From Candidatus Kaiserbacteria bacterium RIFCSPHIGHO2_01_FULL_54_36 (GTDB taxonomy: Bacteria > Patescibacteriota > Minisyncoccia > Phycocordibacterales > UBA2100): 64,000 nucleotides of DNA. The stretch is from the NCBI GenBank assembly GCA_001781105.1, contig MFKV01000028.1:10428-74427 (forward strand), in the 5' to 3' direction. The notes beneath the pieces were generated by a model. It was not told where the DNA came from, made no database searches, and was given only the letters and a program-made list of their open reading frames with translations. Of the stretch, positions 4,153 through 47,509 are shown piece after piece. Each line of letters starts with the position of its first letter. The first letter of the stretch is position 1. Position numbers and translations under genes: made by a program.

Positions 4153-4632
4153 TTATAGTTGAACCCAGTCTCCCACTTCAACTGAATGCGCCGCAGCGTA
4201 TCCCGCCGGAAGCTCGAGCACGTAGCGCGCCTGCTGCGTAGGCTCGAAGCTCTGTGGATAGGTATCGGGAGACACGTTTTCTGTGATAGAGACGATCGTG
4301 CCGTCAGCGGCGAGCCACAGAATATCGATCGAGAATCGCATATCTTTCATCCAAAATCCGTATTCCCCATCGGCGGGAAAAATAAAGAGCATGCCTTCGT
4401 CGGGAGCTAGTCCTTCGCGGCCACTCAATCCCCTTTGCCGCTCTGCGGGAGTCTCTACAACAGTGGCTTGTACGGTTTGGTCTCCCACGCCTATCGTCCG
4501 CATCGGAGATGCGAGCGAGGAAGTACTGACGGGAGCAGGCTTAACGTGCTGCTCCGTCAAGATCGTATAGAAATATGCGGCGACGAGTAGAAGTACGCCC
4601 GCAACAGCGATGTAGATTGATCCGCGCTTCAT
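4153..4632 (-). CDS. DUF192 family protein
   Basis: 159 aa with an N-terminal membrane anchor. The motif GMLFIF...FWMKDMRFSIDILWL is typical of DUF192/COG1430. Confidence 0.75.
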   Translation of the reverse strand: MKRGSIYIAVAGVLLLVAAYFYTILTEQHVKPAPVSTSSLASPMRTIGVGDQTVQATVVETPAERQRGLSGREGLAPDEGMLFIFPADGEYGFWMKDMRFSIDILWLAADGTIVSITENVSPDTYPQSFEPTQQARYVLELPAGYAAAHSVEVGDWVQL

Positions 4633-4641
4633 ATCACGAGG

Positions 4642-5115
4642 CTACTCTGCAAGATATGCGCCAGTCTGATCCGCTTCCATGTCATAGTTCGCCCCTACCG
4701 CTGCGGACCCGACGACGAGGATGATAGCCATCACAATGAATGAGACAAGCCAGTAGAGCGAGACTATCAAGTAGTAGCGGATGGGTTTTTGCTCCCAGAG
4801 CACCATTCCAAGCATCGGCGGGGCGGTAAAGCCGATCCAACACCAAAAGCCAAGCTCTATGGCACCGATCCAGTCATATACTCCCCAGGCGATGCCGAAA
4901 TAGTTCATCACATATGCGACAAGCATGCTCGCAAGGAGCGCCACGAGTGCATAGAGCGGCATCCACTTCTTGCCGCGCTCCGCCATTTCGGGAGTCATAC
5001 CTCCCATTCGCATCCAGCTGCCGCCGAAAATGCTCGGGTGGTACCATACCCACCCAATGAGAACGGATGCGACGCCTGCGGCGAGTATTGGCCAGAACGT
5101 TACTTCCATCATGTT
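4642..5115 (-). CDS. DUF1761 family membrane protein
   Basis: MMEVTFWPILAAGVASVLIGWVWYHPSIFGGSWMRMGG... is a DUF1761-like multi-TM protein. The longer ORF reaching 5343 overlaps tRNA-Ser, so the start is taken at the MMEV codon. Confidence 0.65.
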   Translation of the reverse strand, partial: NMMEVTFWPILAAGVASVLIGWVWYHPSIFGGSWMRMGGMTPEMAERGKKWMPLYALVALLASMLVAYVMNYFGIAWGVYDWIGAIELGFWCWIGFTAPPMLGMVLWEQKPIRYYLIVSLYWLVSFIVMAIILVVGSAAVGANYDMEADQTGAYLAE

Positions 5116-5326: not shown

Positions 5327-5733
5327 TGTGGAATATGACTCATGTCTCTCAGCGAACGCTTGCCACAAATACTTCAAGGCGGATCAAGAAGAACCTTATC
5401 AACGCGCTCGGGGGAAATGACGGGGTTATCATCGAGTCTCTTCTTACACCGACGGAAACGACAATGCTCGCAAAGCGCTTAGCAATGATCGTCATGCTCG
5501 AACGCAAATATTCCTCATATGAAATAGGTAAGGGTCTGAACGTGAGTATTTCTACAGTCCTTCGTTTTGAGCGGATGCTTCGCGCGGGGGTATTTCGTGC
5601 AATTCAAAGAATCTTGCGCAGTAAGAAAAAAGTATCACTATTAGAGTTGTTGGAGCTGACGTTCGTGCGCCATGGAAATGCAAAACACAAAAGGCGCATG
5701 GCGGACATCAAGCGCAGGTTATGGGCCACGTAG
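5326..5733 (+). CDS. Small Trp-repressor-like (TrpR/YerC family) DNA-binding protein
   Basis: ...LLTPTETTMLAKRLAMIVMLERKYSSYEIGKGLNVSISTVLRFERML has the HTH signature of the TrpR/YerC family. Start chosen at MWNMTHV (5326); 5335 is also possible. Confidence 0.55.
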   Translation: MWNMTHVSQRTLATNTSRRIKKNLINALGGNDGVIIESLLTPTETTMLAKRLAMIVMLERKYSSYEIGKGLNVSISTVLRFERMLRAGVFRAIQRILRSKKKVSLLELLELTFVRHGNAKHKRRMADIKRRLWAT

Positions 5734-41024: not shown

Positions 41025-41297
41025 CTATTGCAGTCTTTTGCAAAACACTAGTATAGATTCTGCGCGCGGTGTCAGTTTGTGACGGACAGCGCTTCCCTGG
41101 TTCCGTTTAAAAACGAGGCCGGCGATTGCCAGTTTGCGTACGTGATCCGAAGCATTTTCATATCCTATTTTTAGACGCTGTGAAATATCTTCGACCGACA
41201 GTTCAGGTTCTCGTTTTAACAAATCGAGGATTTGCAGACGCCGATGATTCGCAAATCCTTTGACTATTCGTTCCAGCTGTCTGTATGTAGCTGCCAT
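41025..41297 (-). CDS. ArsR-family HTH transcriptional regulator (about 90 aa)
   Basis: FANHRRLQILDLL...SVEDISQRLKIGYENASDHVRKLAIAGLV. Start at MAATYRQ; the track start is a TTG inside a repeated motif. Confidence 0.7.
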   Translation of the reverse strand: MAATYRQLERIVKGFANHRRLQILDLLKREPELSVEDISQRLKIGYENASDHVRKLAIAGLVFKRNQGSAVRHKLTPRAESILVFCKRLQ

Positions 41298-41353
41298 AGA
41301 TCGATTGTACTCTATTGCAGTCTTTTGCAAAACACTAGCATAGGAATAAAGAT

Positions 41354-44168: not shown

Positions 44169-44395
44169 ATCGTTTCGTTATGTTTCTAAATGTCGGCTCA
44201 TTCTACCGCTCTTCCAAATCTAGGCAAACCGAGTTAATCGCCGACGCGAGCTCGCTTACGGCACGTCCTCGCACCACAAGAGTACTTCCAAATTTCTAAC
44301 TCGCTACCGCTCCTAAGAAATTTTGGTCGCTCAACGTTCGGTCGGCTTCGCCCTACTGGCCTCAGCACTTCCTCGCTCAACGCTCGGTCGCAGTA

Positions 44396-44814: not shown

Positions 44815-46617
44815 TTATTGCCGTCTGGCCCGAGAGCGATCGATGTCGGTCAGCTGCTGCTTGCGCAATCGAACGCTTGTAGGAGTTATTTCCAAATACT
44901 CATCTTCTGCCATCACTTCAAGCCCGCGCTCGATCGTGAGCGTAAAGGGTGGGATGAGATTGATCGCTTCGTCGGCGCCACTCGAGCGCATGTTGGTGAG
45001 CTGCTTGCCTTTGGTCGGGTTCACGGTCATCTCTTCACCTTTCGAGGTGTTGCCGATGACCTGGCCTTCATACACATCAACGGCAGGGCCGATATATATG
45101 ACACCGCGCTCCTGCAAATTCCAGAGCGAGAATCCGAGCGCCTTTCCGCTTGCCATCGAGATCATGGAGCCCACGTTCTTGCGGCGTATCTCGCCGACGT
45201 GCGGCTTGAAGCCCACAAAGCGCGAAGAAAGGATCCCCTCGCCCGAGGTGTCGAGCACGAATTGGCTGCGGTAACCGAGAAGCCCGCGTGTTGGCCCTTC
45301 GAAGATGAGCCTCACTTGGTTCTCATGGACTTTCAGATCTTTCATTATGAATTTGCGTGTGCCGAGACGCTCGATGATGGCACCTTGGTACACTTGTGGC
45401 GTGTCCACGATCACCTCTTCAAAGGGCTCCTGCATTTCCCCATTCTCCTCGTGGAAGATGACCTGTGGCTGCGAGACCTGCATTTCATATCCTTCACGGC
45501 GCATGTTCTCGAGGAGTATCGCAATGTGGAGCTCGCCGCGGCCTGAGACCTTGAAGGTATCGCCGCCGGAGAAATCCACGCGCAATCCGACGTTGACCTC
45601 GAGCTCACGCTCGAGCCTGTCGCGGATCTGCCGCGACGTCACGAATTTGCCTTCGCGGCCGGCGAAGGGAGAATTGTTGACGAGGAAGTTGAGCGTGATG
45701 GTGGGCTCATCGATCGCTATCGCGGGAAGCGCTTCGGTACTTTCATCGGTCGTAATAGTCTCGCCGATATAGATCTCCGGAATGCCCGCGATCATCGCGA
45801 TATCGCCAGCGGAGACTTCACTCGATTCGATCTTCTTGAGTCCTCTGAACGTGAACATCTTCGTGATCTTTCCAGTATGCGTCTCGACCTGGCCGGTCAG
45901 GCCGTCTACCTTTTTGACGAATACCGCATCTCCCGTCTTGAGAGTGCCTTCGTAGCAGCGCACGATCGCAAGGCGCCCGAGAAAGTTGTCGTAGCCGAGG
46001 TTAAAGGGCTGGAGCCGCGCAGGCTTCGTGAGCGCCTCCGGGCTTGAGGCGGGTGGGACGTGGCTCAGTATCGTCTCCAACAGCGGCGTGAGATCTGCCG
46101 ATTCGTCGGTGAGTTTGAGCTTCGCTATCCCCTGCCTGCCGATAGAGTAGACAATAGGAAAATCGGCCTGCTCATCAGAAGCGCCCAATTCCAAGAAAAG
46201 TTCGAGTACCTGTTCTTCCGTGCGCGCAGGATCTGCCGCAGGCTTATCGATCTTGTTGATGACAACTATTGGCTTTATGCCCAACTCCAGTGATTTTTTT
46301 AGCACGAAGCGTGTCTGCGGCATGGGGCCTTCTTGGGCGTCGACGACAAGCAATACCGAATCGATCGAGCGCAGTACTCGCTCCACTTCGCTCCCGAAGT
46401 CGGCGTGGCCGGGAGTGTCGACGATGTTGATCTTGGTATCCTGATAGAAAATCGCTGCGTTCTTGGAGTAAATGGTGATGCCCCGCTCAAGTTCGAGCGC
46501 ATTACTATCCATGGATACACCCTCTTCGGCTACTCCCGTTTGTCGTAAAAGCGCGTCTGTCAGCGTCGTCTTCCCATGATCAACATGGGCAATAATAGCT
46601 ATGTTCCTGATTTCCAT
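44815..46617 (-). CDS. typA: Translational GTPase TypA/BipA
   Basis: [18 protein letters not shown] and NKID G-motifs. 600 aa with the BipA C-terminal domain. Confidence 0.95.
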
Positions 46618-46620
46618 ATG

Positions 46621-46713
46621 TTAAAAAGTACCACCTACAGAGTGGGCGACCTGCCCCGTTAGAACGCGTATTCGCGTTTCTAATGGGGTGATCGCAATGT
46701 TCCGTATCTCCAT
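46621..46713 (-). CDS. 30-codon upstream ORF (leader-peptide candidate) mimicking the typA N-terminus
   Basis: Own translation: [30 protein letters not shown]. Its first 8 residues are identical to the typA start, and its stop lies 3 nt before the typA ATG. Confidence 0.4.
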   Translation of the reverse strand: MEIRNIAITPLETRIRVLTGQVAHSVGGTF

Positions 46714-46736
46714 GGTCTTTAATGCAAAATGCCCCC

Positions 46737-46775
46737 GTCGGGGCACCCCGTAGCTCAATTGTGCCTTATTTTAGG
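46737..46775 (-). terminator. Rho-independent terminator after the dsbA-like gene
   Basis: Minus strand reads GGTGCCCCGACGGGGGCATTTTGCATT. Confidence 0.6.
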
Positions 46776-46786
46776 CTTCGCGTCAA

Positions 46787-47509
46787 TTACAACTGCGGAT
46801 CGATCGCGCTCTTAAAGCTCGAAACCTCTGCGGCTCCTCCGATCAAGACCTTACCCGTGATAAAGCCAGGAGTGCCGTTGATGCCGAATTTCGTGCCCTC
46901 TTCGCGATCGGCATCGAGTAGCGCTTGATACTGTGCTCTGTTCCCTGCAACATCCGCTTTCACTCGGTCGGCGTCTATGCCACTGATACCGCGCATGAGC
47001 GTAACTATGGTCGCCTCGTTGCCAAAGCCTGCGTGCTCTTCGTCTTGTGCCTTGTACATCGCTTCGCGCCACTCCCAATACTTTTGTGGATACAGTGCCC
47101 AGACAGCGCGGCCGTAGAGAGCCGCCGTAGTAGAGTCCTCGCTCAAAAATGGGTAATCCTTGAATACGATCTTAAGCTTGCCTGTGTCAACGTAGTCTTT
47201 GATCAATATAGGAAGCGCCGGCTCGATCGGGATCTGCGCATGCCCCATCTCGACTGCTTTGCAGTACGGGCACTGATAATCCGACCAATATGCGAGAACG
47301 ACTTTGGCGTTCGCATCACCAATATACGGACTCCCCTCGACACTCACGTCCTTAATATCGACATTTGCCTGAGGCTGACCACCTGGCGCAGGTGCGGCGC
47401 TCTGTGAGGAGAGGCCGAGGTAGAGGCCGCCGGCAATAAGCGCGCCCGCCGCGACGATCGCTACGGGGAGATATAGCTTGCTGGTATCGCGTGCGGATTC
47501 AGTCGGCAT
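46787..47509 (-). CDS. DsbA-family thiol:disulfide oxidoreductase (membrane-anchored)
   Basis: CPYC active site in a thioredoxin fold. Start at MPTESARD. Confidence 0.8.
   Translation of the reverse strand: MPTESARDTSKLYLPVAIVAAGALIAGGLYLGLSSQSAAPAPGGQPQANVDIKDVSVEGSPYIGDANAKVVLAYWSDYQCPYCKAVEMGHAQIPIEPALPILIKDYVDTGKLKIVFKDYPFLSEDSTTAALYGRAVWALYPQKYWEWREAMYKAQDEEHAGFGNEATIVTLMRGISGIDADRVKADVAGNRAQYQALLDADREEGTKFGINGTPGFITGKVLIGGAAEVSSFKSAIDPQL

Follow-up and report, generated by a model that had tools for sequence, protein, structure and literature searches.

We analyzed a stretch of 64,000 nucleotides from contig MFKV01000028.1 of Candidatus Kaiserbacteria bacterium RIFCSPHIGHO2_01_FULL_54_36, an ultra-small bacterium of the candidate phyla radiation (CPR)/Patescibacteria. 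The whole stretch is hereafter called the window. Our subject is the leader of its typA gene, which lies on the minus strand (Table 1). The product of typA matches the entry 'GTP-binding protein TypA [Candidatus Kaiserbacteria bacterium RIFCSPHIGHO2_01_FULL_54_36]' at 100% and carries the Pfam domains GTP_EFTU, EFG_C and BipA_C. An earlier note on this DNA had described a 30-codon upstream open reading frame (uORF) that shares the peptide MEIRNIAI with typA and ends TAA-CAT-ATG, and this layout is confirmed at 46713..46621 on the minus strand: the uORF begins with an ATG at 46713-46711, its TAA (46623-46621) is followed by CAT (46620-46618), and the typA ATG comes next.

Codons 1-8 of the uORF (ATGGAGATACGGAACATTGCGATC) and of typA (ATGGAAATCAGGAACATAGCTATT) both encode MEIRNIAI and differ at six nucleotides, all of them synonymous. 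An identity of eight residues between the two starts cannot be due to chance. Downstream of these codons, the uORF contains a 39-nt palindromic sequence (46688..46650), which we term element E. When E is excised in silico, the flanks join as ATC A|TC GCC CAC, which reads as codons 8-11 of typA (I I A H). The uORF thus resembles typA over 11 codons, and the hairpin is an insertion into that copy. Over codons 1-11, the spare and the real copy in the window show eight synonymous and no non-synonymous differences. Judged by this comparison, the uORF repeats the start of typA as a truncated copy of codons 1-11, which a palindromic insert splits inside codon 9. The similarity ends after codon 11, and a 24-nt spacer leads to the real ATG. 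The hairpin that the earlier note had placed inside the uORF is real and larger than described: CCCCAUUAGAAACGCG-AAUA-CGCGUUCUAACGGGG, with a CCCC/GGGG clamp, folds at -18.8 kcal/mol in the sense strand (z = -5.5 vs. shuffled sequences). The leader of the window is identical, base for base, in five independent assemblies; since its architecture also recurs in relatives, it is neither an assembly artefact nor a product of chance.

A TTGAC..17..(C/T)A(C/T)AAT site precedes a hairpin in the 5' untranslated region (UTR) at most related typA loci, and from its sequence the TTGACG-17 nt-CACAAT site of the window is a putative promoter. In relatives that lack the insert, the same 5' hairpin and T-run immediately precede the typA ATG; the window has the promoter-like site, the GC hairpin and the T-run (46786..46722, minus strand) ahead of the spare ATG instead. 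By this comparison, the hairpin and its U-rich tract are the normal typA leader, now standing ahead of the spare start. The whole leader folds at -58.8 kcal/mol (z = -4.8 vs. shuffles). A scan of the leader with the covariance models of Rfam 15 matched no family, and its sole sub-threshold match, to a snoRNA, lies elsewhere. We also observed that the typA 5' UTR has a near-universal design in loci L002-L080 (L numbers label the compared loci), consisting of TTGAC-17-..AAT, a GC hairpin ending in GGCA, a T-run and the ATG. This design has no Shine-Dalgarno sequence; mRNA stability or S1-dependent loading are roles that we raise as questions only.

Table 1. Coordinates of the features discussed; positions refer to the window unless another locus is named
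Feature	Position	Strand	Basis or remark
Functional typA (translational GTPase TypA/BipA, 600 aa)	44815..46617	-	open reading frame
typA ATG	46617-46615	-	
Spacer TCTGTAGGTGGTACTTTTTAACAT, 24 nt, with uORF TAA, weak hairpin and U-run	46618..46641	-	
Spare copy part 2 (rest of codon 9 and codons 10-11, I-A-H), TCGCCCAC	46642..46649	-	
Element E, 39-nt palindromic insert CCCCATTAGAAACGCGAATACGCGTTCTAACGGGGCAGG (CCCC-stem-loop-stem-GGGGCAGG)	46650..46688	-	excision restores typA codons 8-11
Spare copy part 1 (codons 1-8 and first base of codon 9), ATGGAGATACGGAACATTGCGATCA	46689..46713	-	encodes MEIRNIAI(I); differences all synonymous
uORF, 30 sense codons and TAA (spare typA start read through the insert)	46621..46713	-	open reading frame and comparison
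5'-UTR hairpin CGGGGUGCCCC-GACG-GGGGGCA, then U-rich tract	46722..46750	-	-16.9 kcal/mol, z = -3.5
Promoter-like TTGACG-17 nt-CACAAT for the typA leader	46758..46786	-	consensus scan
Spare msrB 3' end after the functional stop (44398-44396)	44203..44395	-	split by 151-nt insert
Mosaic comparison with L135 (602-2454)	46713-44815		genes 10 kb away 89-90% identical
E-type hairpin inside typA of L095	~5678-5698 of the reverse complement	-	
E-type hairpin inside typA of L121	~4753-4781		

Recurrence, codon conservation and stop placement

We compared the window with 80 species-level genomes that have the closest TypA proteins (74-89% identity; Kaiserbacteria/Paceibacterota) and with metagenomes, which were scanned using the 3' end of E together with an intact typA start as the anchor. 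The architecture is present in four of the 80 genomes (L001, L034, L035, L063), and the metagenome scan returned 83 stretches, from which 56 unique leaders were parsed. Among the parsed leaders, E joins the spare copy after nucleotide 1, 5, 7, 14, 16, 25, 32 or 41; the junction always follows an A and never falls between codons. In every class the spare copy extends past E, mostly by 6-13 nt (median 9), and from the end of E to the typA ATG there are 8-35 nt, in many relatives 11-18 nt. None of the 76 insert-free genomes has a spare copy without E. On the typA tree the carriers are scattered, and L001, the sister of the window, has E at codon 5 and not at codon 9. These alignments show that the combination of an insert with a duplicated gene end is found again and again among Paceibacteria/Kaiserbacteria, in many lineages and with E at differing codons.

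Other insertions were observed at the same place. The typA 5' UTRs of L018 and L022 share another insert, CCGAGCTGTATGA..ATACAGTGAGGGAG, and the typA leaders of L007, L025, L028 and L030 hold different ones again. The leader of typA seems to be a hotspot of small insertions. At the protein level, TypA P0109 has an in-frame E-I-R repeat at its N-terminus, and several database TypA entries have spurious N-terminal extensions that read through the 5' hairpin or through leader inserts.

Next, we compared the spare and the real copies codon by codon across all unique leaders. The two copies differ at 61% of third positions (295/484) and at 2.5% of second positions (12/485), while 41 of 502 first positions differ, by inspection largely through the choice between CGN and AGR at codon 4. 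Counted as codons, 289 differences are synonymous and 20 are non-synonymous. For pairs of leaders with a homologous upstream UTR, substitutions in the spare copy number 28 synonymous to two non-synonymous. A neutral duplicate formed in situ and old enough to have saturated its synonymous sites would no longer be recognizable, and here the peptide is kept. The saturated third positions, set against the second positions, thus rule out a neutral fossil of an in-situ duplication. The earlier note had offered a tandem-duplication fossil as one explanation. Its account of the origin stands, in that the uORF is a second copy of codons 1-11; a simple decaying fossil does not, given the palindromic split, the recurrence in dozens of lineages and the excess of synonymous differences. 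On the substitution pattern, either purifying selection acts on the spare codons, or the copies come from diverged sources and are repeatedly refreshed.

If the uORF is translated, its start and frame are expected to be kept. Of 52 unique leaders, 50 retain the spare ATG. Reading on through E in the uORF's own frame meets no stop in 46 of 50 cases, whereas the two alternative frames are open in 70 of 100 (P about 0.002). In most leaders the uORF stops within ~25 nt of the typA ATG, and among the uORFs that extend into typA, 19 have their stop at +7 or +8. The real starts of the carriers also differ from other typA starts at Arg codon 4, where AGR and CGN occur 41 and 6 times, respectively. The corresponding counts are 18:27 in the spare copies of the same genomes and 27:49 in insert-free typA genes. 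The AGR bias of the real starts is significant against both (Fisher 3e-6 vs. spare copies, 1e-8 vs. insert-free genes), while spare copies and insert-free genes do not differ (p = 0.70). The first 15 nt contain a stop in one of the other two frames in 36 of the 47 real starts, compared with 13 of the 47 spare copies and 24 of the 76 insert-free genes.

The synonymous choices at codons 3-4 determine which frame is closed: ATA-AGR creates a TAA in frame +1, whereas ATT-AGR creates a TAG in frame +2. We used this property as a frame test. There are 22 uORFs that read into typA, 21 of which meet exactly one such stop, and in 20 of these 21 the stop lies in the frame of the uORF (binomial about 1e-5). 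As an internal control, uORFs that stop upstream match the frame in 6 of 14 cases, which equals chance. The window instead ends its uORF by the TAA located 3 nt before the typA ATG. As read from these comparisons, the frame-matched stops are hard to explain unless ribosomes translate the uORF and its termination at the start of typA is of consequence.

Element E and the mirror case at msrB

Among the E elements, 22 have a length of exactly 39 nt and share invariant CCCC and GGGGCA[AG]G ends. Lengths range from 20 to ~70 nt and are often exactly 39 nt. Compensatory double changes are seen at 6 of the 10 stem pairs of the consensus. Different spare copies carry one variant, CCCCAGTACCACAACGC-TYC-GCGTTGGCTACGGGGCAGG, at codon 5, 9 or 11, and it is also present at the msrB 3' end in L012. 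E-type hairpins further lie in frame inside a variable loop of typA itself, in L095 (CCCCGCCTGAAATAAGCGGGGCAAG) and in L121 (CCCCGAACGAAGCTCCGCTTCTAACGGGGCAAG). An extra 21-nt insertion in typA of L133, apparently hairpin-forming, has no counterpart in its close relative L141.

E-type hairpins were also found in phage contigs of IMG/VR (L169-L173). In L169/L173 the hairpin follows a 1775-aa open reading frame and is itself followed by a second hairpin, CCCGCC..GGCGGGCAGG; in L170 it follows a capsid-like gene; and in L171/L172 it lies in frame in an 88-aa open reading frame (L171 6958..7224), where it reads TPVPSHGATGQ in L171. One such small reading frame adjoins a capsid-like gene. A viral scan with the E variant of the window gave one doubtful match only, adjoining a tRNA gene. 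The window holds one E copy. Apart from those at the typA start, 1.17 Mb of related loci and flanks contain nine E candidates, of which the ones at msrB and inside typA are clear and the one in L130 is possible; the remainder look like chance. When the ends were relaxed in a generic hairpin scan, matches were no more frequent than in shuffled sequences. On the basis of these occurrences, E is a family of palindromic inserts and not a motif confined to typA.

Several origins and roles of E were considered and set aside. A derivation from the P-loop coding sequence of typA is doubtful: the similarity between the 3' arm CGTTGGCTACGGG and CGTTGACCACGGG is, by our own estimate, marginal. A pairing of the spacer GTGGTACT with AGTACCAC of the common E variant is found in L100 and L129 and not in the window, and it is therefore no conserved switch. 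Integron attC, dif and lox-like sites presumably do not fit either, by their core motifs and spacing.

The neighbouring gene msrB presents a mirror image. After its functional stop, a spare copy of its 3' end begins with TACTGC (44395-44390), is interrupted by a 151-nt insert (44389-44239) and resumes as ATTAAC...CGGTAG (44238-44203), all on the minus strand. This copy covers the last 14 msrB codons with seven synonymous and two conservative differences, and it keeps the stop. The typA and msrB cases are the only local duplications in the whole window that are recognizable at the peptide level with diverged nucleotides. The msrB 3'-end duplication is also present in L024, L027 and L012. In L012 the spare 3' end is split by an E-type hairpin in the inverse orientation, with a second element nested in its loop. 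With respect to the insert's own orientation, the short spare piece and the intact gene in L012 lie on its 3' side, as at typA.

Further observations concern msrB and its insert. L012 (5100-5160, 5269-5333) has, besides the nested element after the msrB stop, an in-frame insertion in msrB, PALRSLGEGGER, that consists of a related palindrome, and a related sequence lies in the typA leader of L025. Within the window, the motif GAGCGAGGAAGTACTGA..AGCAGGC of the msrB insert recurs at ~4500-4545 on the plus strand, inside an open reading frame on the minus strand (4153..4632), where it encodes ..KPAPVSTSSLASP... The sequences suggest a second family of small inserts that are tolerated in genes. Elsewhere in the window, a direct repeat of ~27-30 nt (CTATTGCAGTCTTTTGCAAAACACTAG.ATAG) occurs at 41025-41052 and 41312-41339 on the plus strand, 287 nt apart; it contains a short inverted repeat, and the two copies might be paired operator sites.

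Comparison with known systems

The leader resembles translationally coupled uORFs, in which a short reading frame with its own initiation region stops near or overlaps the downstream AUG. The spare ATG is preceded by the native hairpin and U-rich leader. The two reading frames meet as TAA-CAT-ATG in the window and as ATGGAGATTAG or ATGGAGATAAG in relatives, and the downstream typA start, which has no obvious Shine-Dalgarno sequence, follows a stable hairpin. Unlike known coupled uORFs, the typA uORF is a recoded duplicate of the first 2-14 codons of the gene itself, split by a palindrome. To our knowledge, no leader built in this way has been described, and our literature searches found no description of this leader or of the element.

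E shares features with Rickettsia palindromic elements (RPEs) and REP-RAYT palindromes: it is a short imperfect palindrome with conserved ends and a variable, compensating stem, and like RPEs it is found both in frame inside protein genes (L095, L121 and the phage gene of L171) and in intergenic DNA. It differs from RPEs in length, being 20-70 nt as opposed to 100-150 nt. It differs from both REP and RPE in being rare, with one copy in the window and few in 1.17 Mb, so that it does not form a set of dispersed copies, and in being concentrated in the first 14 codons of one gene together with a duplication of the gene start.

Duplication of gene ends upon integration is familiar from phage 21 and e14 at the 3' end of E. 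coli icd, and from the 3' ends of tRNA genes. As in the icd cases, a disrupted gene end is replaced here by a synonymous second copy while the displaced end remains adjacent. Unlike the sites of phages and integrative and conjugative elements, only tens of nucleotides and no integrase-bearing element lie between the copies, the insert sits inside the displaced copy, and there are many junctions. E also resembles the sequences that are skipped in programmed translational bypassing, known from T4 gene 60 and from the 'byp' elements of Magnusiomyces mitochondria, in that a short GC-rich hairpin insert interrupts coding and its precise removal restores the frame. Bypassing was rejected for typA, because the interrupted copy breaks off ~3 codons after E and is followed by a full second typA start that has an ATG of its own.

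Proposed coupling to typA, alternatives and significance

Taken together, the leader is probably the product of a palindromic insertion and a duplication of the gene start, and it would now be kept as a translated uORF coupled to typA. Under this model, ribosomes would load at the spare AUG, which retains the native initiation region, and would translate through E, melting its hairpin. They would then terminate at the real typA AUG or a few nucleotides beyond it, and typA would be translated by termination and reinitiation; at the minimum, the uORF would have to stop there and not overrun typA. E, which is located 8-35 nt before an AUG that has no Shine-Dalgarno sequence, would hinder direct loading and would thereby have made typA expression dependent on the uORF. 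Once coupled, selection would keep the spare AUG, the open frame through E and the stop at the typA start. Translational coupling was one of the possibilities named in the earlier note, and the comparison supports it, by the retained ATG, the open frame through the insert, the stop at the typA ATG and the contrast between the frame test and its control. We infer the steps of the model from the comparative statistics, and they build on observed anatomy, an observed element family, coding-like conservation and frame-matched stops. The outcome would be either real regulation, in which, for example, synthesis of the ribosome-assembly GTPase TypA is tied to elongating ribosomes that open the stable hairpin, or no more than a dependency fixed in the wake of a selfish insertion.

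Several routes could have produced insert and duplication together. The candidates are repair, with an intact homologue as the template, of a break ~9 nt on the 3' side of the hairpin; recombination with foreign DNA, either Campbell-type or illegitimate and facilitated by homology; and template switching induced by the hairpin. A simple target-site duplication flanking E was rejected in general, since the spare copy runs past E, mostly by 6-13 nt; the 22-nt repeats of L141 could fit one. Mutagenesis of the type caused by diversity-generating retroelements was also rejected, because the differences in the window are by inspection not specific to adenine.

Several observations weigh against coupling as the explanation of the leader. 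The earlier note had named absence from close relatives as a refuting result; four species-level genomes and the 56 unique metagenome leaders have the feature, while L002, the closest species-level relative, lacks it, and the carriers are scattered on the typA tree. The antisense hairpin is the more stable one in 34 of 48 unique E elements, compared with three in which the sense hairpin is, and in the window it reaches -23.1 kcal/mol. This fits a palindrome at the level of DNA at least as well as a selected mRNA hairpin; since E is more stable on the complementary strand, its pairing may persist through DNA-level effects or self-correction of the palindrome and not through selection on the mRNA. 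Some leaders have decayed, with a stop at codon 2 (L110), an ATA start (L094) or a lost start (L098), and the uORF is therefore not indispensable everywhere. The conservation of amino acids up to codons 11-14 exceeds what an initiation region needs, and coupling leaves it without an explanation. Translation of the uORF is deduced from sequence statistics only, and the leaders are not phylogenetically independent. The dependence of typA on it is likewise suggested by the position of the hairpin before the AUG.

Recombination also contributes. Between the window and L135, the upstream regions cannot be aligned and the spare copies differ at 4 of 24 positions, all synonymous. From E to +54 of typA, 118 of 120 positions are identical, with part 2 of the spare copy and the spacer matching at 100%; identity then falls to ~83% over the next 360 nt and to ~70% beyond. 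This mosaic indicates a recent recombination tract that starts at E, as judged from the alignment. Part of the pattern thus reflects recombination or horizontal spread and not long-term selection, which is a further point against coupling. L133 and L141 can be closely aligned over typA and its upstream region: L141 has identical 22-nt repeats around E, whereas L133 has E in the UTR and no spare copy, so that a fresh event is visible. A sliding-identity scan for mosaics against the species-level relatives had no power, because all of them are ~75% identical at the nucleotide level.

These same observations feed an account that we consider unlikely, in which the leader is the scar of a selfish or mutational event without function. 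A mobile palindromic element, or DNA of another lineage that carried one, would have entered the typA start, and the gene would have survived through an intact start supplied alongside; translation of the uORF would be incidental, and the spare copy would look coding-like because the events are recent or because recombination with real starts overwrites it. It is consistent with the E-type hairpins in unrelated places (the msrB 3' end, the inside of typA and phage contigs), with the scattered carriers and the different codons hit in sister lineages, and with the identical or near-identical E elements in hosts whose synonymous sites are saturated. The sharp identity boundary at the 5' end of E between the window and L135 points the same way, as do the codon usage of the spare copies, which cannot be distinguished from that of ordinary typA starts, the presence or absence of the spare copy in L133 and L141 with the identical repeats of the latter, and the decay of some copies. 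What a scar leaves unexplained is why stops match the frame in 20 of 21 read-in leaders and in 6 of 14 of the controls, why the AGR bias is limited to the real starts of carriers, and why the frame through E is open in excess. The saturated synonymous divergence and the 28:2 ratio would require very frequent re-creation at the same sites or equally frequent refreshment by recombination, and the 76 insert-free genomes showed no spare copy without E.

That E and a conserved spacer form a cis-regulatory RNA, either a thermosensor or a binding site for TypA or another ribosome factor, with the spare codons merely delivering ribosomes, seems improbable to us. TypA/BipA acts on ribosomes, and its loss in E. 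coli is reported to cause cold-sensitive growth and defects in ribosome assembly, which would suit such a role. The downstream part of the leader is well conserved: between L100 and L129, E is 97% identical and the spacer with part 2 of the spare copy is 94% identical, yet the first 20 typA codons have 11 synonymous changes. Between the window and L100, part 2 and the spacer differ at 2 of 32 nt, as read by eye from the alignment listing, despite saturated synonymous sites. The strong folding of the whole leader and the compensatory changes that maintain the hairpin agree with an RNA function as well. A conserved RNA is, however, difficult to reconcile with an element whose position (codon 1 to 14), length (20 to ~70 nt) and distance to the ATG (8-35 nt) all vary, whose hairpin is usually more stable in antisense, which also lies in phage genes and intergenic regions, which has no Rfam match, and for which no conserved alternative pairing was seen by eye and in one fold. 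Classical transcription attenuation by a leader peptide, in which the position of the ribosome would choose between terminator and antiterminator, was raised in the earlier note and is very improbable. A short reading frame containing a hairpin does lie upstream of the gene, and in the window a weak terminator-like site (CCACTCTGTAGGTGG and TACTTTTTAA) is located between E and typA. This stem has five pairs only and the minimum-energy fold lacks it; the uORF contains no run of regulatory codons for a single amino acid, its conserved part (50 leaders) being the N-terminus of typA itself; many carriers lack a U-run and have E only 11-18 nt from the ATG; and no conserved pair of alternative terminator and antiterminator hairpins is present. 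The comparative anatomy thus largely refutes attenuation. We give hardly any credence to an attachment-site scar, left by an integrative element that targeted the typA 5' end, brought a replacement start and has since been mostly deleted. In its favour, the typA-msrB pair has a duplicated gene end on either side, the copies differing almost exclusively at synonymous positions, and E-type hairpins occur in phage contigs. The copies are nevertheless separated by 71 nt in the window and by as little as ~50 nt in relatives, which leaves no room for a recombinase gene between them (the flanks were not screened for recombinases). By inspection, the parsed leaders have no evident identical crossover core in common, E is inside the spare copy and not between the copies, and the junction varies over at least eight positions.

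Beyond coupling itself, a bolder pair of readings can be put forward, of which we hold it doubtful, although conceivable, that one or the other is true. Either E is mobile and inserts in a mode that restores its target, thereby producing the recoded spare end, or the leader of spare start and hairpin is a true sensor. In the former case, E could settle in the opening codons of a highly conserved, near-essential gene while leaving it functional; we know of no transposon for which a target-restoring insertion has been described. In the latter, the leader would set TypA synthesis according to the initiation of ribosomes on the typA region and their unwinding of the hairpin. If either holds, the recurrent, multi-site architecture in CPR bacteria would represent a new kind of gene-start organization.

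uORFs, translational coupling and small palindromic inserts are each known, and it is their combination that is unusual. The first codons of a gene have been duplicated, recoded at nearly every synonymous site, split by a hairpin and kept as a uORF. Dozens of uncultured CPR lineages show this at one and the same gene, with at least eight different junctions, and a mirror-image case lies at the 3' end of the neighbouring gene. The joint production of insert and duplication raises a mechanistic question. For annotation, the leaders are a warning that typA starts and 'N-terminal extensions' in these genomes can be miscalled. They also offer a way, seldom available for organisms that resist cultivation, to study uORF translation by comparison. 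In conclusion, the typA leader is a testable example of how genome-reduced bacteria tolerate, and may even exploit, insertions in core translation genes.

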